Below are positions 1,971-57,873 of a stretch of DNA of 64,000 bases, in pieces. Within the stretch, counting starts at the first letter, position 1, and every line of letters begins with the position of its first letter. Under the pieces are notes generated by a model. It ran no database searches, had not been told where the DNA came from, and worked only from the letters and a program-made list of their open reading frames with translations. The position numbers and the translations under genes are program-made. Source of the DNA: Eledone cirrhosa (taxonomy: Eukaryota); the NCBI GenBank assembly GCA_964016885.1, contig OZ024755.1:18042001-18106000 (forward strand), given 5' to 3'.

Positions 1971-3140
1971 GTATAATCATTTATTACTGATATTAATTAG
2001 CATCTTTTTAATTTCATCCCTAACCTTAACATCACCAGGTTCTGATTGAATGGTTAAGAAGTTTGCTTTACAATCATAGGAGCCCTGTAGAGTAATAATA
2101 GCTTTCACAGAGCTAAGATGCTATTGTAGAGTAATAATAGATTTCACTGAACTAAGATGCTATTGTAGAAAGTGAACAGTCTATGAGTCATGATATACAC
2201 ACATATAAATGCGTGCGTGTGTACGGAGGTGGAATGTCATGTAAGATGAAAACGTAGTACTAAATATAGAGTAATGTAAATGATAAAAGGTTAACTGTGG
2301 GAGGCAACCCACCAACTTCATAGCTACAAGTATCAAACCATTCTGAGATTTCAGATGTAGAAACCTCTTCTACGTCAGCAATGTTAATATTCTGTGAGAA
2401 TGTCACTGACTTATCTTTATTTCTAATAAAAATCATTGCTAATGTAACGGATGCTACTGACCTGTGTAATATTTATCACAGCTTGCTATGTCAGTTTGGA
2501 CAACTGGAAATATTGTTGATCAATGTTTTGACAACCTGTCTTAACCTAATAATAATCCAAACTTTTAAACCAGCTGAAATTATAGAATACTTCTCAGTGA
2601 CAATCACTTTTTATTTCTTCATTAAAACAGATGCAGTGAAGGGAACATGTAGGTTGTCATTTGACCTGCTAGAAATATCAGTTAAATCTCCCTCATATAA
2701 CACATTGAATACTGGCTCTCTCTGGTTCTTATGAAACCCATTATTAAGGGCGGTGAATTGGCAGTATCAGTAGAGGGTCGGACGCCATGCTTTCCAGCTT
2801 ACTTACGTCCCTTTACGGTCTGAGTTCAAATCCCGTCGAGGTTAACTTTGCCTTTCATCCTTACAGGGTCGATAAAATAAAGTACCAGTAATTTACTGGG
2901 TAATTGCTGGCCTTGTGCCAAAAGTAGAAACAATTATTAAGGGTTCTTATTTAACACTTTTGATACCAACCTGGCTAAAACTGGCACTGGTTCTATGAAA
3001 CAAAACCACCAATTATAAAGAATTCCTACTTAGATTAAAATCTTCAAACATATTTTATGTTACTATCTTTGTGATAAAATGATTAACAATTGTAGTTAAC
3101 CTCTAAAAATTCTTCAACAACTCTTTAGCATTTACATTAC

Positions 3141-4530
3141 ATGGCAGAAAGGATATTAGCACAACTAATTAGAGAAAGGGTCAAACTAGATGAGATGCAG
3201 TTTGGTTTTGTGCCTGGGAAGAGTACAACAGATGCCCTCTTCTTGGTGAGACAATTGCAAGAGAGGTTCTTAGAGAAAAATAAGCCACTATACTTAGCCT
3301 TTGTTGACCTAGAGAAGGCCTGATAGCGTACCCCGATCTGTCATCTGGTGGTCCCTAAGGAAACTAGGTGTTGAGGAATGGCTTGTGAGGACAGTGTAAA
3401 CTTTGTTCAGAGGTACTCTCAGTAAAGTCAGGGTAGGAATGGAGTTTAGTGAGGAATTCCAGATACAAGTAGGAGTACATCAAGGTTCGGTCCTCAGCCT
3501 GCTCTTGTTCATTATAGTCCTCCAAGCCATAACAGAGGAGCTGAAGACTGGCTGTCCATGGGAACTTCTCTATGCTGACGATCTGGTTCTTATAGCAGAA
3601 TCAGTAGAGGAGCTAGAGAATAAATTCTGGCTATGGAAACAGCAGTTGGAAGCAAGAGGACTGAGAGTGAACCTAGCTAACACAAAAGTGTTGATGAGTA
3701 GAAAAGAGGACAAAATTCTGATTCCGTCAGGGAAATGGCATAAATTCTATAAAATGCACACAATGCAGATCCTGGGTACACAAGAGATGTAGTGGGATAG
3801 CAGGCAAACTAACAGGTAGGGAGAAATATGTATGCAGTAGATGTACAGGGAAATTAGACAGTAGAAGTGGCATTGATAGACACATTTTTCAAATGCAGGA
3901 GGGTGCTATTGAAGTGGTGGATAGCGTCCGGTACCTAGGAGATCAGATTAGCATGGGAGGGGGGGGGGGTTCTGAGGCCATAGTATCTAGAATAAGGACG
4001 GGTTGGAAGAAGTTTAGGGAGCTGCTTCCTCTGCTGACGAAGAAGGGTTTCTCCCTGCGTACGAAAGGCCGGTTATATGATGCCTGTGTGAGGAGCGCAA
4101 TGCTGCATGGTAGTGAGACACGGGCAGCAACTGCAGAGGATATGCAATGGCTGGAGAGAAATGAGGCAAGCATGCTCCGTTGGATGTGCAGTGTAAATGT
4201 GCGTGAACGACCCAGCATGAATGTGTTGAGAGAGAAACTGTGTCTGAGAGGGATAGAATGTAGTGTACGGGAGAGGAGACTGAGGTGGTGGGGACATGTG
4301 ATGCGCATGGAGGATGATCGATGGGTGAAGAAGTGCCAGGAAATGCCAGTTGAAGGAAGACGTGGTAGAGGTAGACCACGAAAAACATGGGCGGAGGTGG
4401 TGAAACTGACCTCAGATCGTTGAAGCTCATGGTGGACCGTGATGAGTGGAGAGATGCTGTGCTGAATAAGACCCGTCCCACCCTTGCAAGCAGGGAAGAG
4501 CGGACGTAAAATGATGATGATGATGATGAT
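3141..4530 (+). mobile_element. 5'-truncated, frameshifted RTE-clade LINE (reverse transcriptase to 3' end)
   Basis: ORF pieces with RT motifs QFGF..GKST, FVDLEKA, GVHQGSVLS, LLYADD and RRLRWWGHVMRM...GRPRKTW. Ends in a (GAT)n tail. Contains stops and frameshifts. Confidence 0.92.
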
Positions 4531-9956: not shown

Positions 9957-12274
9957 ATTTGTGTGAGTGGTTTGCTGTTTATTCCAAGTGTACTTTTCAT
10001 ATTATTAACGGTGGTGGTGGTGGTGGTGGTTTGGCAGAATCGGTAGAGTGTCGGACATCATGCTTTGTGTTCTGAGTTCAAATCCCGCTGAGGTTAGCTT
10101 TGCCTTTCATCTTTACAGAGTTGACATAATAAAGCACCAGTTATACACTGGGGTCAATTTAAACCTTTAGCATTTACTATAGTATTTTCACAGTGATAGC
10201 ACCTCACATATTTATCTCATATGATATCGAATCTATGAGATTTTGATATTATTTATTTTTAGAACAATACCTTAACATCAGTATGAGCAGTTAGTTATGG
10301 CTGGTTTGAACAGAAAGAGATGAGAATTCTGGCCGGATATTGCCAGTTTAAATGCTAAAGGGTTAATCAACTTTCCCCATCCCCCAAAATTGCTGGCCTT
10401 GTGCCTAATGTAGAAACCATTATTAGTGGTGGATTGGCAGTATCGGTAGAGAGTCAGACGCCATGCTTTTCAGCATAGAGTTGCGTCCCTTTACGGTCTG
10501 GGTTCAAATCCCGCCGAGGTTAACTTTGTTTTATCAACCCCCGTAAGGATGAAAGGCAAAGTACCAGTAATGTACTGGGTAATTGCAGGCCTTGTAAGGA
10601 TGAAAGGCAAAGTAATAATAATAAGTAGAAACAATTATTATTATTATTACTTTGCCTTTCATCCTTACGGGGGTCGATAAAATAAAGTACCAGTAATACA
10701 CTGGGTAATTGCTGGCCTTGTGCCAAAAGTAGAAACAATTATTGTTGCTGAAATGAAAAAATATAGTAAAAAGCAGGTGAATGAAAAACTGAGGTGCTTT
10801 GATGAAACATTTCTGATCCATGATAGGTACATTCCTATTTGTGCCTTATTTCACCTAACTCAGAGAAATAAATATCTCAATTGTGCCATATTAACCCATT
10901 GCCAGGCCCTGCGGCTTTCATGTATTACAACCACTTTGTATATTCTGATACTGTCCATAAGAAAACTAACTGAAATTCACTAATACAAATTTTTATGTAT
11001 AAAATGATGATGTATGAAAGTACTTGTCCACTTTCTTTTGTTTTAATATATTTTTAACAAATGAAGCAATTACAATTTTTTATTTCTAAATCATTTTGTA
11101 ATTTATTATCATTTCACATTGTTTAAATTCAGATTTGTTATCAAAAAATGAAAATGAAACAGAAAATTCCAACATAAATTTATTTATATATATTAATAAA
11201 ATATTTGAAAAGTTATGTTTAGAGATTTTTTTGTATGTGTGTGTAGTATGACTTAACACTTTAGTATTTATTATATATGTTATTCTATATATACTATTGT
11301 ATTTTGCCAGTCAGGGCTTTATCTTACATAATTATCTCACATAATATAGAATCTATGAGATTTTGATGTTATTTATCTTTAGAACAACACCTTAATGTTG
11401 GTATGAGTGTCCTGTCATAGCCAGTTTGAACAGAAAAAGGTGACAGAATTCTGGCCAGATACAGCCAGTTTAAATGGACAGAATACAACATGGTGTTTGT
11501 TCAGGCTATCTGCACTTTGAATTCAAAGAATGCAAAAGTCAACTTTGCTTTTCATCCTTTCACAGTCGATAAATAATGGTTTCTTATATAGGCACAAGGC
11601 CAGCAATTTTGGGGGAGGGGAAAGTCGATTAAATCGACCCCAGTGTGTGACTGGTACTTTATTTTATCGACCACATAAGGATGAAAGGCAAAGTTAACCT
11701 CGGCGGGATTTGAAATCAGATAGTAAAGGGCCGTAACTCTATGCTGCAAAGCATGGTGTCCGACTCTCTACCCACCGCCCTCACAGTCGATAAATAATGG
11801 GATTGATTCTTCTTCTATATCTCTTTCACACTTCCTCTCTATCACGTTATCTCTCTCTCATATATATAACGAAGGAAATGTGGTAAGGAACCAGATGGAC
11901 CATAATGCACCAAAGTACTCAATACTTAGGGTAGTAGAGTGGGTAATAGGAACTATAGTGGGGTCCTACTCGTTCCTATATATATATGAGGCAATGACAC
12001 AGGGCCAAGACCTCTAGTGTTACACAGTAATACAGAAGACCCGACCTCCCATGGGTACAAGCTGAAGCATATAGACAGTATGCCCCCACTGTAAAGTGGT
12101 TGTGTCGGTGCCACGGTAAAAAAGCACCCAGTACTCACTGTAAATGAGGTTGGTGTTAGGAAGAGTGTGGAAGAATGGACATAAAATGATGATGATGATA
12201 TATATATATATATATGCACATATACATATATACTATTATATGCAAATACATACATATATATATATATATATATA

Positions 12275-12327
12275 GGGATTCCTGATGATTTCTAAAGAAT
12301 GAAACAGTTCTAGTCCTGTAGAATCTC
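12275..12327 (+). ncRNA. Type I hammerhead ribozyme motif (family A)
   Basis: GGGAUUC-CUGAUGA-UUUCUAAAGAAU-GAAA-CAG(uucuaguc)CUG-UA-GAAUCUC: 7-bp stem I, intact core, stem III and GUA cleavage triplet. Stem II has a non-canonical U-U closure. Confidence 0.75.
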
Positions 12328-12328
12328 A

Positions 12329-12368
<40 letters not shown>

Positions 12369-15084: not shown

Positions 15085-17116
15085 GAGTTAAGGTAGAAAG
15101 GTAAAAAAAGGTAGAGGAAGGAGTTATGGTAGAAAGGTGTAGGAAATGAAGGAGAGGAAGGAGTTAAGAGTTAAGGTAGAAAGGTGAGGAAGGAGAGGAA
15201 GGAGTTAGGGTAGAAAAGTGAGGAAGGAGTTAGGGTGGAAAGGTGAGGAAGGAGTTAGGGTGGAAAGGAGAGGAAGGAGTTATGGTAGAAAGGTAGAGGA
15301 AGGAGTTAGGGTGGAAAGGAGAGGAAGGAGTTAGGGTGGAAAGGAGAGGAAGGAGTTAGGGTAGAAAGGTAGAGGAAGGAGTTAGGGTAGAAAGGTAGAG
15401 GAAGGAGTTAGGGTGGAAAGGAGAGGAAGGAGTTAGGGTAGAAAGGTAGAGGAAGGAGTTAGGGTGGAAAGGAGAGGAAGGAGTTAGGGTGGAAAGGAGA
15501 GGAAGGAGTTATGGTAGAAAGGTAGAGGAAGGAGTTAGGGTGGAAAGGAGAGGAAGGAGTTAGGGTGGAAAGGAGAGGAAGGAGTTAGGGTGGAAAGGAG
15601 AGGAAGGAGTTAGGGTAGAAAGGTAGAGGAAGGAGTTAGGGTGGAAAGGAGAGGAAGGAGTTAGGGTAGAAAGGTAGAGGAAGGAGTTAGGGTAGAAAGG
15701 TAGAGGAAGGAGTTAGGGTGGAAAGGAGAGGAAGGAGTTAGGGTGGAAAGGAGAGGAAGGAGTTAGGGTGGAAAGGAGAGGAAGGAGTTAGGGTGGAAAG
15801 GTAGAGGAAGGAGTTAGGGTGGAAAGGAGAGGAAGGAGTTAGGGTGGAAAGGTAGAGGAAGGAGTTAGGGTGGAAAGGTAGAGGAAGGAGTTAGGGTGGA
15901 AAGGTAGAGGAAGGAGTTAGGGTGGAAAGGTAGAGGAAGGAGTTAGGGTGGAAAGGTAGAGGAAGGAGTTAGGGTAGAAAGGTAGAGGAAGGAGTTAGGG
16001 TGGAAAGGAGAGGAAGGAGTTAGGGTGGAAAGGTAGAGGAAGGAGTTAGGGTAGAAAGGTAGAGGAAGGAGTTAGGGTAGAAAGGTAGAGGAAGGAGTTA
16101 GGGTGGAAAGGAGAGGAAGGAGTTAGGGTGGAAAGGAGAGGAAGGAGTTAGGGTAGAAAGGTAGAGGAAGGAGTTAGGGTAGAAAGGTAGAGGAAGGAGT
16201 TAGGGTGGAAAGGAGAGGAAGGAGTTAGGGTGGAAAGGAGAGGAAGGAGTTAGGGTGGAAAGGAGAGGAAGGAGTTAGGGTGGAAAGGTAGAGGAAGGAG
16301 AGGAAGGAGTTAGGGTGGAAAGGTAGAGGAAGGAGTTAGGGTGGAAAGGAGAGGAAGGAGTTAGGGTGGAAAGGTAGAGGAAGGAGTTAGGGTAGAAAGG
16401 TAGAGGAAGGAGTTAGGGTGGAAAGGAGAGGAAGGAGTTAGGGTGGAAAGGAGAGGAAGGAGTTAGGGTGGAAAGGAGAGGAAGGAGTTAGGGTGGAAAG
16501 GAGAGGAAGGAGTTATGGTAGAAAGGTAGAGGAAGGAGTTAGGGTGGAAAGGAGAGGAAGGAGTTAGGGTGGAAAGGAGAGGAAGGAGTTAGGGTGGAAA
16601 GGAGAGAAAGGAGTTAGGGTAGAAAGGTAGAGGAAGGAGTTAGGGTAGAAAGGTAGAGGAAGGAGTTAGGGTGGAAAGGAGAGGAAGGAGTTAGGGTGGA
16701 AAGGTAGAGGAAAGAGTTAGGGTGGAAAGGTAGAGGAAAGAGTTAGGGTAGAAAGGTAGAGGAAGGAGTTAGGGTGGAAAGGTAGAGGAAGGAGTTAGGG
16801 TGGAAAGGAGAGGAAGGAGTTAGGGTAGAAAGGTAGAGGAAGGAGTTAGGGTAGAAAGGTAGAGGAAGGAGTTAGGGTAGAAAGGTAGAGGAAGGAGTTA
16901 GGGTGGAAAGGAGAGGAAGGAGTTATGGTAGAAAGGTAGAGGAAGGAGTTAGGGTAGAAAGGTAGAGGAAGGAGTTAGGGTAGAAAGGTAGAGGAAGGAG
17001 TTAGGGTAGAAAGGTAGAGGAAGGAGTTAGGGTAGAAAGGTAGAGGAAGGAGTTAGGGTAGAAAGGTAGAGGAAGGAGTTAGGGTAGAAAGGTAGAGGAA
17101 GGAGTTAGGGTGGAAA
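15085..17116 (+). repeat. 25/26-bp purine-rich minisatellite (GGAAGGAGTTAGGGT[G/A]GAAAGG[T]AGA)n
   Basis: Direct inspection: ~2 kb of near-identical units, each containing one TTAGGG. Confidence 0.95.
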
Positions 17117-17460
17117 GACAAACGAAGGAGTGAAGGTAGAAAAGAGTTGAAGGAGTGAAGGTAGAAAAGAGTTGAAGTAGAAAGGCAAAGATAAAGGAAC
17201 ATTTGGCAGTTATTTCTAACAGGTGGAGGTTCGCTAGTCTTACATTCTGACATTTCTGAAATTCTTATTAAAGTGACTGATATATTAATCATTTGGTATT
17301 AATTACTTATAGGATAATTTAATTAGTCGATTCAGTTATATCCTGGTTTTCACAGGAAGTTTCCTATTTCGTCATATCTATCTAAATATCCATATCACTA
17401 TTTCTATATTTAATATATTGATTGTTGCCTACATCCTCTGCTATCTTCTTAGTCTTCTCT

Positions 17461-17524
<64 letters not shown>

Positions 17525-18120
17525 TATACCTACATATATATATACATATATATGTGTGTGTGTATATATGTAAAGGTGTAGATATATATATATATATATG
17601 GATGTTATAAATAATTGTTTCTACTTTAGGCACAAGACCAGCAATTACCCAGTGCATTACTGGTACTTTATTTTATCGACCCCGTAAGGATGAAAGGCAA
17701 AGTCAACCTCGGCTGGATTTGAACTCAGATCGTAAAGGGACGTAACTATGCTGCAAAGCATGACGTCCGACCCTCTACCGATACTGCCAATCCACCGGTG
17801 TGATTATATATAACATCCATATATATATGGATGTTATAAATAATGATATATATATATCATCATCATCGTTTAAGATAGACGTTAAACGATGATGATGATG
17901 ATATATATATATATCATTATTTATAGTGGATTGGCAGTATCGGTAGAGGGTCGGACGCCATGCTTTGCACCAAAGAGTTACTTCCCTTTACGGACTGAGT
18001 TCAAATCCCGCCAAGGTTAACTTTGCCTTTCATCCTTACGGGGGCGATAAAATAAAGTACCAGTAATACACTGAGATAATTGCTGGCCTTGTGCCAAAAA
18101 GTAGAAACAATTATTTACAA

Positions 18121-18650
18121 CATCATCGTTTAACGTCCATCTTCCACACTTGCATGGGTCTGGTCCCACTTAAGGCAAGATTGGTTGTCTTGCTCAGGAC
18201 TGTCTGGCAGGTTTTCTACGGCTGGATGCCCTTCCTAACACCAACCACGTTTACAGTGTGGACTGGGAGGTTTTTACCGTGTTACCTACACGGCCACATT
18301 ACAGCGTGGACTGTGTGTTTTTTTTTTGTCGTGACACCTACACGACCTCATTTATTTCGGACTGGATGTTGTGGTACAAACATAACTTTACATCGAAGGG
18401 GTGGTGTGGGTGGGGTGTGTGTCGTGGGACGGTGGTGTATTTTTGTTAGAGGTGCCTACTGACTGTAGTAGGTTTCGCTTTGTACTTAGGCAAGGCGGGT
18501 CTTCTGTATAACTGTGTAGCGCTAAAGATCTCGGTCCAGTGACATTGTCTTGGAGAGGTGTAAGTGTGTGAGGTCGGAATTTATCAAGTCGTCCCAGGTT
18601 TTTCTGGGTCTGCCTACTCCATGGCTACCGCCCTGCACTTTTTTATACAG
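18121..18650 (-). mobile_element. RTE LINE 3' fragment, 5'-bounded by the (GGAA)n satellite
   Basis: Reverse complement closely matches 38590-39180. Confidence 0.8.
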
Positions 18651-21600
18651 GGAAGGAGGGAGGAGGAAGGAGGGAGGGAGGGAAGGGAGGGAGGAAGGAA
18701 GGAAGGAAGGGAGGAAGGAAGGAAGGAGGGAGGAAGGAAGGAAGGAAGGAGGAAGGAAGGAAGGAAGGAGGGAAGGAAGGAAGGAAGGAAGGAGGGAAGG
18801 AAGGAGGGAGGGAAGGAAGGAGGGAGGGAAGGAAGGAAGGAAGGAGGGAAGGAAGGAAGGAGGGAAGGAAGGAAGGAGGGAAGGAAGGAAGGAAGGAGGG
18901 AAGGAAGGAAGGAAGGAAGGAGGGAAGGAAGGAAGGAAGGAGGGAAGGAAGGAAGGAAGGAAGGAAGGAAGGAAGGAGGGAAGGAAGGAAGGAGGGAAGG
19001 AAGGAGGGAAGGAAGGAGGGAAGGAAGGAAGGAAGGAGGGAAGGAAGGAAGGAGGGAAGGAAGGAGGGAAGGAAGGAAGGAGGGAAGGAAGGAAGGAAGG
19101 AGGGAAGGAAGGAAGGAAGGAAGGAAGGAGGGAAGGAAGGAGGGAAGGAAGGAGGGAAGGAAGGAGGGAAGGAAGGAGGGAAGGAAGGAGGGAAGGAAGG
19201 AGGGAGGGAAGGAAGGGGGGAAGGAAGGAGGGAAGGAAGGAGGGAAGGAAGGGGGGAAGGAAGGAGGGAAGGAAGGAAGGAAGGAGGGAAGGAGGGAAGG
19301 AAGGAGGGAAGGAAGGAGGGAAGGAGGGAAGGAAGGAGGGAAGGAGGGAAGGAAGGAGGGAAGGAAGGAGGGAAGGAGGGAAGGAGGGAGGGAAGGAGGG
19401 AAGGAAGGAGGGAAGGAGGGAGGGAAGGAGGGAAGGAAGGAGGGAAGGAAGGAGGGAGGGAAGGAAGGAGGGAAGGAGGGAGGGAAGGAGGGAAGGAGGG
19501 AGGGAAGGAGGGAAGGAGGGAGGGAAGGAGGGAAGGAGGGAGGGAAGGAGGGAAGGAGGGAAGGAAGGAGGGAAGGAGGGAGGGAAGGAGGGAAGGAGGG
19601 AAGGAGGGAAGGAAGGAGGGAAGGAGGGAAGGAGGGAAGGAGGGAAGGAAGGAGGGAAGGAGGGAAGGAGGGAAGGAGGGAAGGAAGGAGGAGGGAAGGA
19701 GGGAAGGAGGGAAGGAGGGAGGGAAGGAGGGAAGGAGGGAAGGAAGGAGGGAAGGAGGGAGGGAAGGAGGGAGGGAAGGAGGGAAGGAGGGAAGGAAGGA
19801 GGGAAGGAAGGAGGGAAGGAGGGAAGGAGGGAAGGAGGGAAGGAAGGAGGGAAGGAGGGAAGGAAGGAGGGAAGGAGAGAAGGGAGGGAGGGAGGGAAGG
19901 GAGGGAAGGAAGGAAGGAGGGAAGGAAGGAGGGAAGGAAGGAGGGAAGGAAGGAAGGAGGGAAGGAAGGAGGGAAGGAAGGAAGGAAGGAGGGAAGGATG
20001 GAAGGAAGGAGGGAAGGAAGGAAGGAGGGAAGGAAGGAAGGAAGGAAGGAAGGAAGGAAGGAAGGAAGGAAGGAAGGAAGGAAGGAAGGAAGGAGGGAAG
20101 GAAGGAAGGAAGGAGGGAAGGAAGGAAGGAAGGAGGGAAGGAAGAAGGAGGGAAGGAGGGAAGGAAGGAGGGAAGGAAGGAGGGAAGGAAGGAGGGAAGG
20201 AGGGAGGGAGGGAGGAGGGAGGGGGAAGGAGGGGGGAAGGGAAGGAGGGAGGGAGGGAAGGAAGGAAGGAAGGAAGGAAGGAAGGAAGGAAGGAAGGAAG
20301 GAAGGAAGGAAGGAAGGAAGGAAGGAAGGAAGGAAGGGAGGGAAGGAAGGAAGGAAGGAAGGAAGGAAGGAAGGAAGGAGGAAGGAAGGAAGGAAGGAAG
20401 GAGGGAGGGAAGGAAGGAAGGAAGGAGGGAAGGAAGGAGGGAGGGAAGGAAGGAAGGAAGGAAGGAAGGAAGGAAGGAAGGAGGGAAGGAAGGAAGGAAG
20501 GAAGGAAGGAAGGAAGGAAGGAAGGAAGGAAGGAGGGAAGGAAGGAAGGAGGGAAGGAAGGAAGCAGGGAAGGAAGGAAGCAGGGAAGGAGGGAAGGAAG
20601 GAAGGGGGAGGAGGGAGGGAGGGAAGGAAGGAAGGAAGGAAGAGGGAAGGAAGGAAGGAAGGAAGGAAGGAGGGAAGGAAGGAGGGAAGGAAGGAGGGAA
20701 GGAAGGAGGGAAGGAAGGAGGGAAGGAAGGAGGGAAGGAGGGAAGGAAGGAGGAAGGAAGGAGGGAAGGAGGGAAGGAAGGAGGGAAGGAGGGAAGGAAG
20801 GAGGGAAGGAAGGAGGGAAGGAGGGAGGGAAGGAGGGAAGGAAGGAGGAGGAAGGAAGGAGGGAAGGAAGGGGGAAGGAAGGAGGGAAGGAAGGAGGAAG
20901 GAAGGAGGGAAGGAAGGAAGGAAGGAAGGAGGGAGGAAGGAAGGAAGGAAGGAAGAAGGAAGGAGGAAGGAAGGAAGGAAGGAGGGAAGGAAGGAGGGAA
21001 GGAAGGAGGGAAGGAAGGAGGGAAGGAAGGAAGGAAGGAGGGAAGGAAGGAAGGAAGGAGGGAAGGAAGGAGGAAGGAAGGAAGGAAGGAAGGAAGGAAG
21101 GAAGGAAGGAAGGAAGGAAGGAAGGAAGGAAGGAAGGAAGGAAGGAAGGAAGGAAGGAGGGAAGGAAGGAGGGAAGGAGGGAAGGAAGGAGGGAAGGAAG
21201 GAGGGAAGGAGGGAAGGAAGGAGGGAAGGAGGAAGGAAGGAGGGAAGGAAGGAGGGAAGGAAGGAGGGAAGGAAGGAGGGAAGGAGGGAAGGAGGGAAGG
21301 AAGGAGGGAAGGAAGGAAGGAAGGAAGGAAGGAAGGAAGGAAGGAAGGAAGGAAGGAGGAAGGAGGGAGGGAAGGAAGGAGGGAAGGAAGGAGGGAGGGA
21401 AGGAAGGAGGGAGGAAGGAAGGAGGGAGGAAGGAAGGAGGGAAGGAGGGAAGGAGGGAAGGAAGGAGGGAAGGAGGGAAGGAGGGAAGGAAGGAGGGAAG
21501 GAGGGAAGGAAGGAGGGAAGGAGGGAAGGAGGGAAGGAAGGAGGGAAGGAAGGAGGGAAGGAAGGAAGGAGGGAAGGAAGGAGGGAAGGAAGGAGGGAAG

Positions 21601-22958
21601 GAAGGAGGGAAGGAGGGAGGGAAGGAGGGAGGGAAGGAGGGAGGGAAGGAAGGAAGGAAGGAGGGAGGGAAGGAAGGAAGGAGGGAGGGAAGGAGGGAGG
21701 AAGGAGGGAAGGAGGGAGGGGGAGGAAGGAGGGGGAGGGAGGGAAGGAGGGAGGGAAGGAAGGAAGGAGGGAGGGAAGGAAGAAGGAGGGAGGGAAGGAG
21801 GGAGGGAGGGAAGGAGGGAGGGAAGGAAGGAAGGAGGGAAGGGAGGAAGGAAGGAGGAAGGAAGAGGAGGGAAGGAGGAAGGAGGGAAGGAAGGAAGGAG
21901 GGAAGGAAGGAAGGAGGGAAGGAAGGAAGGAGGGAAGGAAGGAAGGAGGGAAGGAAGGAAGGAGGGAAGGAAGGAAGGAGGGAAGGAAGGAGGAGGGAAG
22001 GAGAAGGAGGGAAGGAAGGAAGGAAGGAAGGAGGGAAGGAAGGAGGGAGGGAAGGAGGGAGGGAAGGAGGGAGGGAAGGAGGGAGGGAGGGAGGGAAGGA
22101 GGGAGGGAGGGAGGGAGGGAGGGAGGGAAGGAGGGAAGGAAGGAGGGAAGGAAGGAGGGAGGGAGGGAAGGAGGGAGGGAGGAAGGAGGGAGGGAGGGAA
22201 GGAGGGAAGGAAGGAGGGAAGGAAGGAGGGAAGGAAGGAAAGAGGGAAGGAAGAGGAAGGAAGAGGGAAGGAGGAAGGAAGGAGGGAAGGAGGAAGGAGA
22301 GGAAGGAGGAAGGGAAGGAGGAAGGAAGGAAGGAAGGAAGGAAGGGAAGGAGGAAGGAGGGAAGGAAGGAAGGAGGGAAGGAAGGAAGGAGGGGAAGGAA
22401 GGAGGGAAGGAAGGAAGGAGGGAAGGAGGGAAGGAGGGAAGGAGGGAAGGAGGAAGGAGGGAAGGAAGGAAGGAGGGAAGGAAGGAAGGAGGGAAGGAAG
22501 GAAGGAGGGAAGGAAGGAAGGAGGGAAGGAAGGAAGAGGAGGGAAGGAAGGAAGGGAAGGAAGGAAGGAGGGAAGGAAGGAGGGAGGAAGGAAGGAGGGA
22601 GGGAAGGAGGGAGGAGGAAGGAGGGAGGGAATGAGGGAAGGAGGAGGGAAGGAGGAAGGAGGAGGGACGGAGGGAGGAAGGAGGGAAGGAAGGAAGGAGG
22701 GAGGGAAGGAAGGAGGAGGGGAAGGAGGGAGGGAAGGAGGGAGGGAAGGAGGGAGGAAGGAGGGAGGGAAGGAGGGAGGAAGGAGGGAGGGAAGGAGGGA
22801 GGAAGGAGGGAGGGAAGGAGGAGGGAAGGAGGAAGGAAGGAAGGAGGGAAGGAAGGAAGGAAGGAGGGAAGGAAGGAAGGAGGAGGAAGGAAGGAAGGAG
22901 GGAGGGAAGGAAGGAGGGAGGGAAGGAGGGAAGGAAGGAAGGAGGGAGGGAAGGAAGG
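18650..22958 (+). repeat. (GGAA/GGAG)n purine microsatellite, ~4.3 kb
   Basis: Almost exclusively G/A on the + strand. Confidence 0.97.
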
Positions 22959-23158
22959 NNNNNNNNNNNNNNNNNNNNNNNNNNNNNNNNNNNNNNNNNN
23001 NNNNNNNNNNNNNNNNNNNNNNNNNNNNNNNNNNNNNNNNNNNNNNNNNNNNNNNNNNNNNNNNNNNNNNNNNNNNNNNNNNNNNNNNNNNNNNNNNNNN
23101 NNNNNNNNNNNNNNNNNNNNNNNNNNNNNNNNNNNNNNNNNNNNNNNNNNNNNNNNNN
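22959..23158. other. Assembly gap (200 N)
   Basis: Run of N. Confidence 0.99.
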
Positions 23159-25180
23159 GAAACGAGGGGGAAAGGGTGAGGGGAAAGAAGCGAGGGGGAA
23201 AGGGAGAGGGGAAAGAAACGAGGGGGAAAGGGTGAGGGGAAAGAAGCGAGGGGGAAAGGGAGAGGGGAAAGAAGCGAGGGGGAAAGGGAGAGTGGAAAAG
23301 AGAGAGGGGGAAAGAGAGGGGGAGAGGGAGGGAGGGAGAAAGGGGGGAAAAGAGCGAGGGGGAAAGAGCGAGGGAAAGAGAGGGAATGGGAAAGAGGGAG
23401 AAGGGGAAAGGGATGCGGGAGGGAGAAAGGGGGAAAGGGAGAAAGAGAGGGGGAAAGGGAGAGGGGGAAGGGAGAAAGGAAAGGGGGAGGAAAGGGGGAA
23501 AGGGGGAAAGGGGGAAAGGGGAAAGGGAGAAAGGGGGAAAGGGAGAAAGGGGGGAGAAAGGGGGGAAGGGGGAGGGGGAAGGGGGGAAAGGGAGAGGGGG
23601 AAAGAGAGAGAGGGGGAAAAGGAGGGAGAAAGAGAGGGGAAGGAAGAGGGGAAGGGAGAGGGAGAAAGGGAGGGGAAGGGAGAAAGAGAGGGGAAGGGAG
23701 AGAGGGGGAAAAGAGCGAGGGAAAGAGATAGAAAGGGAGAGGGGGAAAGAGATAGAAAGGAGAGGGGGGAATGGGGGGAGAAAGGAGAGGGGGAAGGGAG
23801 AAGGGAGAAAGAGAGAGAGAGGGGGAAGGGAGAGAGGAAAGGGGAGAGGGGAAAAGGGAGAGGGGGAAGAAACGAGGGGGAAAGGGAGAGGGGAAAGGGA
23901 GAGTGGAAAAGAGAGAGGGGGAGAGGGGGAAAGAGAGAGAGAGGGGGAAAGTGAGAGGGGGAAAGGGAGGGAGGGGGGGGGAGAAAGGGGGAAAAAGCGA
24001 GGGGGAAAGAGCGAGGGAAAGAGAGGGAATGGGAAAGAGGGAGAAGGGGAGGGGGAGAAAGGGAGAAAGGGAGGGGGAAAGGGAGAGGGGGGAGGGGGAA
24101 AGAGAGATAGAAAGGGAGAGAAAAGGGGAAAGGGGGGAAAGGGGAAAAGGGAGATGGGGGGAAGGGAGAGGGGGAAAGGGAGAGAGGGGGAAGGGAGAGG
24201 GGGAAAGGGAGAGAGGGGGAAGGGAGAGGGGGGAAGGGAGAGGGGGAAAGGGAGAGAGGGGGAAGGGAGAGGGGGAAAGGGAGAGAGGGAGAAAGAGAGG
24301 GGAAGGGAGAGGGGGAAAGGGAGGGAGGGAGAAAGAGAGGGGAAGGGAGAGAGGGGGAAAAGAGCGAGGGAAAGAGATAGAAAGGGAGAGAGAGGGAATG
24401 GGAAAGAGATAGAAAGGGAGAGAGAGGGAATGGGGGAGAGAGAGGGAATGGGGGAGAGAGGGAGAAGGGGAGAGGGAAAGGGGGAAAGGGAGGAGGGAGG
24501 GGGAGGGAAGAGGGGGAAAGAGAGAAGGGAGGGAGAGGGAAAGGGGGAAAGGGAGGAGGGAGGGGGGAAGGAAGAGGGGAAAAGAGAGAGGGGAAAAGGG
24601 GGAAAGGAAGAAAGGGGAGAGGAAAATGGGATAAGGGAGAGAGGGGGAGGGAGGGGGGAGAGGGGGAAGGGAGAGGGGGAGAGGGGGAAGGGAGAGAGGG
24701 AAGGAGAGGGGGAAAGGGAGAGAGGGAAAGAGAGGGGGTGAAGGAGAGGGGGAAAGGGAAAGGGGGAAAGGGAGAGAGGGGAAAGGGAGAGGGGGAAAGG
24801 GAGGGGGAGAGGGGGGAAGGGAGGGGGGAAAGGGAGGGGGAGAGGGGGGAAGGGAGGAGGGAAAGGGAGAGGGAGAGAGGGGAGAGGGGGGAAGGGAGAG
24901 GGGGAAAGGGAAATGGGGAGGGGGAAAGGGAGAGGGGGAAAGGAAGAGGGGGAAAGATAAAAAGGGAAATGGGGAGGGGGAGGCGGAGAGGAAGAGAGGG
25001 AGAGGAAAGGGAGATGGGGAGAGGGAAAGGGGGAGAGGGAAAGGGGGGAGATGGAGAGGGAAAGGGGAAGAGGGAAAGGGGGAATATGGAAAGGGGGAGA
25101 GAGGTAGAGGGGGAGAAATGGAGAGGGATAGGGGGGATATAGAAGGGAGAGAGGGGGGAGGGGAGATGGAGGGGGGGGGG
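23159..25180 (+). repeat. GA-rich low-complexity satellite (GGGAAAGGGAGA-like)
   Basis: Purine-only strand with irregular higher-order repeats. Confidence 0.95.
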
Positions 25181-38069: not shown

Positions 38070-39983
38070 TGTGCTACAGACGACGTAAGAGCAATGGTTG
38101 GCCAACATAAGGGTTTCGTCACTCTTCTGAAGAGAGGAAATCTATCTGTATTTGTTGTTCATTGTGTCATTCGTCGACAACACTTGGCTGCGAAGCCACT
38201 GAGCAAGTCCTTGCAGTCATCAATTTTATCAAACGGCATTCCCTCAATGAACAAATTTTCCGGCAACTGTGCCAAGATAATGACGAAGTACGTGCAGAGG
38301 ACCTGCGCAGACTGGAAAGGAACGAAGCATGCATGCTCCGTTGGATGTGTAATAGTAATATACGTGAACGGCAAAGCATGAATGAATTGAGAGAGAAACT
38401 GGGCATAAGAGGAATCAAATGCTGTGTGCAGGAGAGGAGGTTGCATATGTAATAGTAATATACGTGAACAGCAAAGCATAAATGAACTAAGTGAGAAATT
38501 AGGAATAAGAGGGATCAGATGCTTTTACTTGAGAGAAGACTACGTTGGTATGGCCACGTGATGCGCATGAAAGACGACAGCTGTATAAAAAATTGCAGGG
38601 CGATCAAAATTGATGGTAGTTACAGAGTAGGTAGACCCAGAAAAACCTGGGACGATCTGATAAATTCCGACCTTACACACTTGTACCTCTCTAAGACAAT
38701 GTCACTGGACCGAGATCTTTGGCGCTACGCAGTAATACAGAAGACCCGCCTTGCCTATGTACAAAGCGAAACCTACAGTCAGTAGGTGCCTCTTAACCAA
38801 ATATACACCCAATCCACTACCCCTACCCTATCCTCCCACCAACACCACCCTCTCTCTGTAACGTTGGTACCACAACATCCAGTCCAAATAAATGAGATAA
38901 TGAGATCAAGATCGTGTAGGTGTCACGACAAAAAAAAACAAAAAAAAAACACAGTCCATGCTGTAATGTGGCCGTGTAGGTAACATGGTAAAAAGTTCCC
39001 AGTTCCACACTGTAAATGGGGTTGGTGTTAGGAAGGGCATCCAGCCGTAGAAAACCTGCCAGATAGTCCTATATGAGCGAGACAAGGTCACCCGACCTAA
39101 CTTGCTTCAAGTGGGACAACTCCCGTCTAACCCATGCTAACGTGGAAGATGGACGTTAAACGAAGATGATGATGATGATGATGAATTCGTCAAGTTGCTC
39201 CTTCATAATGAAGTGAGGTGGCTTTCAAAGGGCAAGTGCCTTACTCACTTCTTTGAACTGTTCGACTCTATCATTGAGTTTCTGCGCGGACGCAACACAG
39301 AACTGTACAAGAAAACCCTCGATGTGAGGCAAAACTGAGCCTACCTCACCGACATCTTCGACAAATTCAATAGTGTCATTTTGGCTTTGCAGGGGAAGAA
39401 GATCACCTTGCTTCAAGCAAGGAATGTTGTCAAAACATTCCTGGCCAAATTGAATGTCATTGAAAGGAATCTTTGTTGACGGGAATTCTATAATTTTCCT
39501 AGCGTCGCCAATGTTCAAAACATTGTAAGCGATGACCAACTCCAAATTTATACCGCTCACCTCCGTGCGCTACAAGACAGCATGAGAGAACGGTTTGTCA
39601 AGCTTTTGCCAATGTGGATAGCAGATCCCTTCACAGCTAACGTCGATGATTTGGACGTTATATTTCAGGAAGAATTCATTGAACTTCAAGCAGATGACAT
39701 GATCAAAATTAGATTTCCCAAAATAGGTGAACCCCTTTTTTGGATGCAAGAGGAAATTCAGCGTCGATTTCCACACCTACATGCAGAGGCAAAGAGATTT
39801 GCTCTGCCTTTTCCAAGCTCATACTTAGTCAAGAGGAGGTTTGGTGCTGTTTCCAGACTGCACAGTAAGGCTCGCAACCGCTACAATGTAATTACACGTG
39901 GAGATCTCCGGCTACATCTAACAAAAATCCAGCCTGACGTCAAAGAGTTAGCTAGACTCCATAAAGTTCAAGGGTCCCATTGA
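38070..39983 (+). pseudogene. Disrupted hAT transposase (SCAND3/ZBED8/GTF2IRD2-like family)
   Basis: ORF fragments at 38094, 38162 and 39582 plus the 39183-39330 frame. Disrupted by stops, frameshifts and a LINE insertion. Confidence 0.85.
38296..39182 (+). mobile_element. RTE LINE 3' fragment nested in a hAT transposase
   Basis: LERNEACMLRWMC and RRLRWYGHVMRM peptides, internal ~100-bp duplication, (GAT)n tail. Interrupts the transposase reading at ...QDNDE / EFVKLLLH. Confidence 0.88.
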
Positions 39984-46044: not shown

Positions 46045-46097
46045 GGGATTCCTGATGATTTCTAATGGGTGAAACAGTTCTGGTCCTGTAGAATCTC
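46045..46097 (+). ncRNA. Type I hammerhead ribozyme motif (family A), sense in SLC34 intron
   Basis: GGGAUUC-CUGAUGA-UUUCUAAUGGGU-GAAA-CAG(uucugguc)CUG-UA-GAAUCUC. Confidence 0.72.
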
Positions 46098-46144
46098 ATC
46101 TATATTAAAACTATATATATACATATATATATATATATATGTAT

Positions 46145-46210
<66 letters not shown>

Positions 46211-46739
46211 TATAGAGGAACAAGTATCACCCCGACGGCAGAGTTCAAGCCGTTTCGACGGCTATTTCTGGACTGAGTCCATGAGTCCAGAAATAGCCGT
46301 CGAAACGGCTTGAGCTCTGCCGTCGGGGTCATACTTGTTCCTATTACCCACTCTACTACCCTAAATATTGAGTACTTTGGTGCGTTATGGTCCATCTGGT
46401 TCCTTACCACAATTCCTTCGTTATATATATATATATATATATATATGGGCGTTTAACGTTTCTTTCGTTTTAAGTTGCCACATGTACATAATCAGACAAC
46501 GAAATTATAAAGATATTAATGAATAGAATGAAGAAACAACGCTACCTGATTGATCTGTAAAAAAGTAAACTATGATTGATTCATTAGTAATACAAAAAGG
46601 CTTAAAATTAAATTGTTTGATGTTGATTATGGAAAATTATTGATAAAAATATGTTAAATGGAATTATCGATCGGAGAATTGTCTACATGAAACGAATGAT
46701 CGCATATATATTTATATATAATAATATTTTATATATATA

Positions 46740-48321: not shown

Positions 48322-48521
48322 ATGTATGTGTGTGTGTATCCCGGGTTCAATCGGGGGTAACCACAGTAAGGTACTCAATACATAGAATATGTACAATATT
48401 TAATACAGAAATGGCTTCTACGGGGCTAGAACCGTTTCATTCGATATATATATAGGAACGAGTAGGACCCCGACGGCTGAGCTCAAGCCGTTTCGACGGC
48501 TAATTCTGGACTCCTATCCGC

Positions 48522-48556
<35 letters not shown>

Positions 48557-51500
48557 TGTAATAAACAATAAGCTCTGTAACCTACATAGAGCACTCTTTT
48601 TTCCTATACCTTTCCGACGGAATTACTTCATTCACACACACACATATATATATATAGGAAAATGTTTAACCCCTATTACCCACTCTACTACCCTAAGTAT
48701 TGAGTACTCTGGTGCGTTATGGTCCATCTGGTTCCTTACCACATCTTCGTTATATGTATATATATAAACAAATCAAACAGGATTTACGAAGAATGTACTT
48801 ACATTCTTTTCAAATTATCTCCTGATTTAATGTGTGATATGTTTATATATGTGTCATTCGTTTTTGAATTTATAAGATAGGAGCTCGGAATTTTTGCTTT
48901 GAGCGTCCTTTTACGCGGTATGGTGCGTGTCAGCAATTTGCGCAGACACACCATTATTTATTTTAGTAATATATAACGTAAATCTGATCTTTATTAATAT
49001 ATTTGTCACTCTTATACAGTAGTTGTAATGTTTGGTTACTTACAGAAGACTAGTCATCTTATAAAATGCTTTCTTTCTACAAATATAAATGAATGAAATC
49101 GTACTAATAATTTAATACACGCTTGTAGTATTGGTAGAGCTTTATCGAGCCATTTAACTTTTGCATAACCCCCCACATACCCAATTGTATCATTCTTATA
49201 AAACAACGTGTTTTACTAATTATATTGCAGTATTTAGTTTTGTTCCTCTGTATTCCTAATTAAAATTTCACTAATGCCGATATAAAATAAGTATTAGTAA
49301 TTAATGTTCAGAATATACCATCTACTTGGCGGAATATATCTTCCTCTCATCAAAATGGCGCAAACCGGTCTCGAATTTTCTTTTATAGACATATACACTG
49401 TTTTATCTCACGCCACTAATGTTTATTTCAGAAAGGCATTTTCTATTGCTACATTTAATTTTTCTCACTATACATTTGTGTTTAGTTGAAAGAATACTTA
49501 TATATTTTACTATTAGTTGAGAATCCCGTGGAGGGCAATTTGCGGTTTCGATCTCAATTAGATCTATACTCCTTCATAGTTAGCTAGTGCCCTTGTGAAA
49601 GTCGCCGTCTGACTTCCTCCCTATTTCTATAGCCAATCCGAGGCTTTGTGTTTAGGTGAGAAATCGATATATTCGTCTGGTGTCTGTCTTGTTGAGAAAA
49701 GTGTTTCAAGGGATCCATTGATTGAATATATATATATATACATACATAGTTTAGTATTCAACATTAAATAAAAATCAGTCGATAGTATCATTTTATTTAT
49801 TGATCCCGACTTAATACGTGGATCTTTCTTATACACTCTCCTCTGTTTACAACATTATATAAACACCCGCCTACTTCTATTTATGTTATTTTTCTAAGTA
49901 CGTCGCAAAACAAAATGTAATCGATATTTTCTATCTCAACACTAAATATACATCCTGTTCCTATGTATTTCTCGTCTTTCTGTTGCTTTATTTGTTGTTT
50001 TTATTGTTTAAAATGTCCATTCTATCAACTTAAATATGGATTTTATTATTTTCCCTCCAAACCGACCTTTTCCCTCGCATTTTCATCTGGATAAACGTAA
50101 ACTGCGTATTTCAAATGTAAGGGTAATTTAGTGGAAACAGATTTTTTTTATCACTATGTTAAATCCCTCTCAAATCAATTACTCAAATCGTGTACATATA
50201 TTTTATTTTCAAATATTAATGTTATATCTTCGCTGGCACTTAACACCTGCGTGTAGGTGGTGTACAGTATTAAGAATGGAATTTCACTTAGGTGGTTTTA
50301 TTTTATAACTAGCTTATACAAACGAAGCTAGTTAATTAGATATTTAAACTATGTAATAGTAATTTTGTAGGAGAAATCCTAAGGATATATAAATATTTCG
50401 AAGTCTGGGAATATTCTTTAAATTGCTTCTCTCCCCCATTCCCAAAATAGCCATGTTTATTAATTTCAATTCACATATCACTAAAGATGGCTATAGTGTT
50501 TTCTAGGTCTTAATGCGTAGTTTCTACATGTGTCCACTGAATTCGATAGCTAAAATATATATATTAGAAACATTACAGAGAAGATCGACGAACTAAATTA
50601 GTCAGATTCGCGCGTTTGGATCCGTCTGTGTTTACGCAATTAAAAATCATTCCACTTGTAGAATTATTCCAGACCAATATCAGGGTTCGAGATATTACGT
50701 ATTTTAAATTATTGAACATTATTTTAAGAGGAAGGAAGAAAATTATCAGTTATTTAAAAGTAGTATGTCTAAAAATCAATTTGAATGCCCAAGACAGTAG
50801 GGACTGAAAAGGGTGTGTTTCAGCTTTGATATTGAAATCTCATCGATGTCGATTTCACCTTCAGCCTTTCAAAACAAACCCTCGATCAGTGACATGACTA
50901 TCTTCCTAATTACACCATTTCCTGCTTTGAAATTAGTTGGAATTTTTTTTTATTACCGACTTTTCATTTTAATCCAATGAAAAGTCATTTTATTAGCTTC
51001 AGTTAATTATTATATAATCCTTTCTTACGTGAACCTAACATAATCTTTTGCGATTAAATTACTCCCCATCCTGTTAAATTAATAGCTTATCTATTTCAAA
51101 CCATATCCATACGCACATATAATGCATGCCTTTTAAAGGAATGGTCTCATAATACAAGCCAATCCTTTAAAACATACAGGCAAATATAAAATGTTTGTGT
51201 ATTAAATGAGGAAAGTATTTTAAACTCTTTGACTTTACTGTTGCTGTTCGAACATTCTTTTATATAATATAGATATATAAATACAAACATTTATGAAAGC
51301 CTCTTTGTTAAAAACTGAATAATTAACTTCATTTATGAATTAAAAGGTACGCGGGAATATTTAGGCGCCTATCTCCCGTCTATGCTACTTAGGCAAACGG
51401 GCTCACCCTTAATCTAGAGTCGCCACGTGTTGCTTACCCAAGCAAATAAAGTAACATTGCGCGGTCGCTCAAACCACATCCTACTGTCTTTATTTTATTT

Positions 51501-57414: not shown

Positions 57415-57873
57415 TTTTCTATTCTAGGGTGGGTAAAATTCCCCAAGATCCATGGACGAGCTCTCTCCAGCGGTCTCTGTCTCTCATTATTGCTGCCATG
57501 TCCTGCGTCTCCAACAGACCCGTGTCTGACCTTAGGGCATCAACATACGTTAACCTTGGTCTTCCTCTTCTAGTGTGTCCATGTAAGGGCTCCCACAGGA
57601 GCACTGAGTGCAATGTCAACTCTGCATGTCCAGCTAACCTCAGTCTCCTCTGTGTCACTTTTGAGCTGACTTTTGGGAGGCTCCCATACAGCTCTGAGTT
57701 GTTCATCCTCAGTGTATACTGATTAATGTTCAGAGCCATCCTCAGCATTCTCATGTAGCACCCATCCACCATCTGAGTGCCACAGCTTGAGATCGGTGTG
57801 GATGTCGGACCTTCGTAAACACCTAAAAATCCGCCTCTTCATTGCTGTAGTGGAGTCTGGGCTGCTGTACGGG
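57415..57873 (-). mobile_element. RTE-like LINE (second family) with inverted 5' segment and 10-bp TSD
   Basis: Minus-strand ORF DGCYMRMLRMALNI...RRLRLAGH...RGRPRLTY. The plus-strand 57778-57873 segment encodes the upstream LKIRLFIAVVESGLLYG. TSD tctgttgaat at 57405-57414 and 57874-57883. Confidence 0.82.

Follow-up and report, generated by a model that had tools for sequence, protein, structure and literature searches.

The small hammerhead ribozymes dispersed in (TA)n microsatellites along a 64,000-nucleotide stretch of DNA, here called the window (G000:C15:18,042,001-18,106,000 of a 3.0-Gb assembly), were found to derive from the pseudo-LTRs of an element that is autonomous, encodes RT/GIY-YIG and retains many open frames in this genome. 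Judged from its sequence, the element is a new Hydra-type Penelope-like element (PLE) family, very large and young, with at least 17,000 copies. That it is the parent of the short copies (stubs), and that these have two 3' ends, lie at (TA)n sites and mostly form back-to-back pairs in which a short arm adjoins a long one, is virtually certain. In two families, A and B, the stubs start 30 nt after a TATA or TATA-like box, which suggests that they are cDNAs that reached an mRNA cap; it is thus fairly probable that they are integrated copies of the capped 5' end of the PLE's own mRNA.

Hammerheads of the window and their parent element

A motif scan of both window strands bore out the two type I hammerheads named in a preliminary description of this DNA (12275-12327 and 46045-46097), which are exactly the complete ones present, and confirmed a third, minus-strand copy as a 3'-half hammerhead ending at 48443. 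The complete copies have a 7-bp stem I, CUGAUGA, a 3-bp stem II, GAAA, a 4-bp stem III and GUA, that is, the CUGANGA, GAAA and NUH core with three helices in type I order. Beneath the 3-bp stem II of this family A hammerhead sits a U.U mismatch, a common arrangement in related elements. In the window copies, two 5' G's that are not native to the element supply the outermost pair of stem I. In copy 1 the A of GUA is at 12320, after which the cut is predicted. The 27-nt 3' half of the family A hammerhead has 17,196 exact matches in genome G000 and a reversed-pattern control has 0, so the motif is not a product of chance. The Rfam hammerhead search proposed in the preliminary description gave no match among the 150 of 170 window rows listed, where the output was microsatellite-driven miRNA noise only, and a focused scan of a full-length element copy likewise contained no hammerhead.

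Table 1. Family A and family B features of the window and the adjoining (TA)n tracts
Feature	Position	Strand
Family B tail fragment with remnant of inverted short arm	11868..11979	-
(TA)n target tract, 5' side of family A stub 1	12198..12274	.
Family A stub 1: two non-native G's, hammerhead to 12327, 8 nt of PLE downstream; short-end class, without inverted partner	12275..12335	+
(TA)n target tract, 3' side of family A stub 1	12331..12364	.
Family A stub 2: 5' start as in stub 1, short end at +15, three A>G changes private to it	46045..46112	+
(TA)n after family A stub 2	46112-46214	
Family B inverted stub pair: short arm minus, long arm plus	46215..46422	+
Sister-subfamily stub: hammerhead 3' half and full tail, long-end class; stem I 3' strand GAAGCC	48337..48443	-
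Family B short-end stub, half hammerhead	48452..48513	-
Family B tail fragment	48672..48760	+

The preliminary description had taken these copies for units of about 55 nt, forming a non-autonomous, ribozyme-centred family of mobile RNA. The units proved longer, as the match to the parent runs to 12335 in copy 1 and to 46112 in copy 2, while copy 3 spans about 105 nt, down to 48337. Genomic copies continue 3' into a tail of about 85 nt and 5' into about 450 bp of unique sequence followed by a TG/TA microsatellite, past which an RT/endonuclease frame was found at L091 and L092. ORF, UTR, microsatellite and hammerhead are joined at these two loci, and the inverted form occurs at L093 and L094. 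Within the window itself, tblastn detected no PLE ORF. A protein search of the genome scored 105 close copies, most of them without stops, and 16 loci were picked from these for their frames of 753-811 codons. All 16 carry the hammerhead and tail directly upstream of the ORF, which upholds the link to Penelope-like elements drawn earlier, and 12 of them have the hammerhead again, in the same orientation, after the 3' UTR. The tail lies in the 5' UTR, with the first ATG about 180 nt after stem I. Copy 1 (12277-12335) shares 59 nt, at 100% identity, with the pseudo-LTR/ORF junction of the long-ORF copy L107; together with the pseudo-LTR location of the same hammerhead in an autonomous element, this identity leaves a separate mobile RNA family without support. 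The sister subfamily, to which copy 3 belongs, has 13,157 matches.

Counted from the first Met, the protein (P0002) is 714 aa long and carries YRDDG and YIG motifs. A DKT motif and a CxCx5C linker are present in 16/16 long-ORF loci, as is RWR in place of RWK; inspection of P0002 by eye identified CxxC and CxH in the endonuclease and no CCHH. Pfam GIY-YIG scored below the cut-off (E=0.016), and a PDB sequence search with the ORF alignment retrieved nothing. The assignment to the Hydra type is based on the agreement of these RT/GIY-YIG motifs with the Hydra-clade description, and the element also has a hammerhead at its end and inserts into (TA)n. Its length exceeds the "under 3 kb" of that clade, a value given as typical, not diagnostic, in the part of the source covered (PMC8557442): the ribozymes are 4.5-6 kb apart, or about 3 kb without the microsatellite, because the 3' UTR holds a long TG/TA tract of 1.5-3 kb that varies between copies (L107-L122).

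Compensatory change preserving the structure was found in stem I, where A-U to C-G between subfamilies is real covariation, and loop II is variable above a conserved stem. The two examples offered in the preliminary description did not survive comparison with further copies. Copy 2 (46045-46097) differs by three A>G changes that are private to it among 316 copies, of which it is the sole one with two or more A>G. For the stem III change of copy 3, the double change is no commoner than under independence (10 copies genome-wide, about 16 expected), and in the first 100 sister copies listed the 3' strand alone was changed in 6, the 5' strand alone in 2 and both in 0; covariation of stem III was therefore rejected. 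The three private changes of 46045-46112 are all A>G and might thus be the trace of A-to-I editing of a single template; that such editing generally underlies the variation among copies was rejected, with 15 A>G against 38 T>C over the 316 copies. By fold prediction, the catalytic fold of the monomer is not the minimum-energy structure and represents about 0.1% of the ensemble, and a two-molecule fold via loop III is predicted.

Other repeats accompany these elements, and a SINE resemblance points to an octopod cephalopod as the probable host. Further, unrelated hammerhead families were noticed at L072, L093, L094, L113, L025 and L050, some with U.U at the stem II base. The window also contains fragments at 3400-4423 (+) and 57419-57838 (-) that we take to resemble an RTE-type LINE reverse transcriptase, a purine-rich satellite region (25/26-mer, GGAA and GA-rich) that spans about 10 kb at 15190-25127 and includes an assembly gap, and a 167-codon frame at 39480-39983 (+) that presumably resembles the C-terminus of a hAT-type transposase.

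Ends of the stubs in families A and B

Family A was sampled through the first 100 listed 27-nt matches, 97 of which were used (two in the full-length L109 were left out and one was not recovered). The sample covers one arm of chromosome 1, paired arms in it are not independent, and it needs an exact 27-nt match across the cut site, so that cDNAs of cleaved RNA are invisible to it. Native upstream sequence is kept in 34/97 copies; the others are stubs, 10 of them solo and 53 with an inverted partner. In about two thirds of the sample the copy is a stub of 60-140 bp that lies in (TA)n and, in most cases, belongs to an inverted pair. The described preference for (TA)n was corroborated, since copy 1 lies between TA tracts and 93 of the 97 copies have a TA tract within 130 nt. 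Measured after stem I, the 3' ends cluster at +8 (13), +15 (22) and +84/87 (30), and one short and one long arm are combined in 18 of 22 inverted stub loci. Tails starting near the cleavage site (+46) number 2 of 146, in a sample biased towards ribozyme-bearing copies. Head-to-tail tandems of 150-450-bp units, as in retrozymes, were not found among these copies: those in the window are solo and the sampled stubs solo or inverted. Elsewhere, L304 (G000:C1:67.88 Mb, minus strand) is retrozyme-like: over 221 bp, a unit of hammerhead, tail and ORF start is repeated head to tail as a trimer. Forward matches exceed reverse ones by 2,100-3,000, an imbalance confined to patterns in which native-upstream copies are counted as well; it hints at a large tandem array in one orientation.

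Between the two 3' end sites the tail forms a hairpin, ACUC/GAGU, present in 33/37 family A and 21/25 family B tails. It recurs in 24 of 31 tails of metagenomic relatives (shuffle mean 0.7), there mostly as GCUC/GAGC, a true compensatory pair relative to ACUC/GAGU, and its sequence conservation makes it a candidate RT-binding element. Across Hydra-type elements, in the tails of families A and B and at loci L307-L385, the conserved hairpin ends ATT/ATC-GAGCAC, lies about 40-70 nt past the cut site and shows G-C/A-U covariation.

The 5' edge of family A is sharp. With +1 as the first base of stem I, 61 of the 97 sampled copies start at -1 or later, and a break falls within -1 to +3 in 31 of the 67 copies reaching +3, compared with 6 of 36 over the 40 nt that follow, and the edge has a shoulder to +25. 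Genome-wide, 13,596 copies reach +2, and three further native bases are retained in just 7,063. Position +1 sits 30-31 nt downstream of TATAAATA, within an Inr-like CCAGATT, and the TATA is found at unchanged spacing in two diverged subfamily copies. The consensus spacing from TATA to transcription start is about 30 nt, on which basis the spacing of +1 is called promoter-like. There are 4,318 non-native 5' junctions; by hand count of the first 100 listed, A+1 is retained in 55, with a G before it in 40 of these, and the GG start of the window copies occurs in 9 of the 100. Hammerheads were found in 52/79 loci of metagenomic relatives; one was kept per locus, and once two doubtful calls as well as near-duplicate and short-flank loci had been removed, 43 remained and clustered to 36. 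In 9 of these 36 distinct relatives a TATAWA precedes the core by 34-43 nt (shuffle mean 1.2), an interval chosen post hoc and from which TATA is absent in the other 27.

Family B, the end of a second Hydra-type PLE also present in the window, has 52,348 genomic matches and served as an independent test of the start-site idea from family A. Its core is a U3-A8 hammerhead with a loop II of about 38 nt that holds a TATA-like box and an Inr. A parent with a 710-codon frame is located at L305, and family B loci were noticed outside the window at L224, L071 and L305. Among 81 of the first 82 copies listed, 17 were classed as long, four of them by eye. In the other 64 the first base falls on, or shortly past, a TCAGT/TTAGT site that follows TATTTAAATA by 30 nt. 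This start falls inside loop II, not at a helix edge, so that a transcription start is favoured over a helix boundary as its cause; both arms of the window pair (46215..46422) begin in the loop, and family B stubs are half ribozymes. A G precedes +1 in just 10 of 36 non-native family B junctions (natives removed by eye).

Proposed origin of the stubs

According to the cap-ended cDNA reading, a TATA/Inr promoter in the pseudo-LTR would make the first base of stem I the transcription start, and the RT/GIY-YIG protein would nick both strands of a (TA)n target. Priming would be internal, at the two sites flanking the conserved tail hairpin, comparable to that of an anole PLE in vitro. On promoter-initiated RNA the RT would arrive at the cap after 60-140 nt, and two such cDNAs would be joined head to head. 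ORF-bearing insertions would arise from read-through RNA of tandem copies only, in line with the tandem requirement of PLEs as discussed in the covered part of PMC2377424. The copied RNA would be mostly uncleaved, and cleavage would probably take place in a ribozyme dimer or with the aid of protein. Against this reading speak a possible origin of the extra G of family A by snap-back onto stem I, the low share of G at family B junctions (10/36), the shoulder of the family A edge, the 27 of 36 relatives with no TATA in the post hoc interval and the TATA-less promoter of Drosophila Penelope.

A broader proposal, to which we give slightly better than even chances, is that most Hydra-type PLE insertions are integrated "strong-stop" cDNAs joined head to head, and that the family B ribozyme is gated by the position of the start site. 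The cDNAs would be primed from opposite target strands at sites flanking the clade-wide tail hairpin. In family B the promoter would lie in loop II of the U3-A8 hammerhead; promoter-initiated RNA would thus have just half of the ribozyme, and only read-through RNA would self-cleave. Such a scheme, if true, would account for the inverted ends of PLEs, their need for tandems and the abundance of naked hammerheads.

The sharp edge might instead be set by RNA or cDNA structure acting on long transcripts of the same PLE, through RT stalling or snap-back on the stem I complement, with the TATA spacing incidental. We regard this as rather unlikely. The family A edge does coincide with the stem I boundary, and several junctions can be read as 1-3-nt snap-back extensions, which would also give the extra G; yet in family B the edge falls within loop II, at no helix boundary and 30 nt past a TATA-like box, the TATA keeps a fixed spacing in diverged subfamily copies, and TATA is enriched in the relatives. 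A random origin of the edge, by 5' truncation or later deletion, or as an artefact of sampling or assembly around microsatellites, is very improbable: PLEs are typically heavily 5'-truncated (PMC8557442, part covered) and the flanks here are of low complexity, but against it stand the excess of breaks at -1 to +3 (31/67) over the adjacent 40 nt (6/36), the similar drop in the whole-genome counts (13,596 to 7,063) and the repetition of an edge in family B.

The stubs could also be a self-propagating, non-autonomous retrozyme-like family that uses the PLE protein in trans and is transcribed from stubs or tandems. Stubs outnumber longer copies (63/97 lack native upstream sequence), six solo copies have exactly the GG start of the window, the 221-bp trimer at L304 and a strand imbalance of 2,100-2,700 matches provide or hint at tandem sources, and the part of bioRxiv 10.64898/2026.07.22.740005 covered derives animal retrozymes from PLE pseudo-LTRs. 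This origin is nevertheless improbable, as the stubs lack upstream promoter-like sequence, and the single ones among them have one ribozyme and form no tandem. The 5' junctions of the stubs are heterogeneous, with the GG start in 9 of the first 100 non-native ones listed, and stubs share the variants TAAA and TAAT of loop II with longer copies.

Tens of thousands of stubs constitute an in vivo map of where PLE cDNA starts and stops, a natural experiment. If the stop is the cap, the origin of the inverted and tandem ends of PLEs becomes directly testable, and start sites could be predicted from the genomic stubs with no need for RNA data.

Comparison with known systems

That dispersed hammerheads come from truncated PLEs, and that Octopus has Hydra PLEs, is already published. 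Single and opposite-strand hammerheads were ascribed to probable truncated PLEs in the covered part of PMC4209133, and the covered part of the PMC8557442 supplement lists Hydra-1_Obim, a PLE of the Hydra clade from Octopus that has a hammerhead and targets (TA)n. What is possibly new is the sharp start of the stubs at 30 nt past a TATA box, in many cases preceded by an extra G. The literature covered contained no text tying PLE stubs to a transcription start and no description of the tail hairpin, either of which subscription papers and supplements may hold. In Drosophila, the Penelope promoter is TATA-less and internal according to the part of PMC2377424 covered.

Like the Hydra clade and Hydra-1_Obim, as far as the covered text describes them (PMC8557442), the element has a single ORF for RT plus a GIY-YIG at the C-terminus, a hammerhead and (TA)n targets, and its protein is congruent with that of Hydra-1_Obim motif for motif by eye (DKT, CxCx5C linker, CxxC, CxH). 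It is a different family, distinct in its hammerhead sequence, in having RWR and not RWK, in its clear pseudo-LTRs and at least 17,000 copies, and in the 4.5-6 kb between ribozymes with a microsatellite in the 3' UTR. With the minimal metazoan PLE hammerheads (PMC4209133, covered part) it shares a pseudo-LTR ribozyme, mostly dispersed singles and opposite-strand pairs, a weak monomer with a predicted dimer and, in family B, the U3-A8 core variant; unlike them, it has a 4-bp stem III with an 8-nt loop and a short stem II with a U.U base. Truncation is not tied to the transcription start in the covered parts of that paper.

The PAc element (a Poseidon PLE of the green anole; PMC11167929, part covered) shows in vitro two internal RT starts that bound the tail, AT-rich targets and extension on both strands of an uncleaved RNA template, much like the pattern of stub ends found here. 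PAc belongs to another clade, the tail is here about 70 nt long and lies in the 5' UTR, and cap-terminated stubs are not described in the text covered. Animal non-LTR retrozymes, in the parts of PMC7229834 and bioRxiv 10.64898/2026.07.22.740005 covered, resemble the stubs in being small, non-coding and PLE-related with a type I hammerhead, and an axolotl retrozyme, too, reportedly has a U.U at the helix II base. Retrozymes form 150-450-bp head-to-tail tandems and circular RNA; the window units, unlike them, are fragments of 60-140 bp, solo or inverted, whose sequence is identical to that of an autonomous element.
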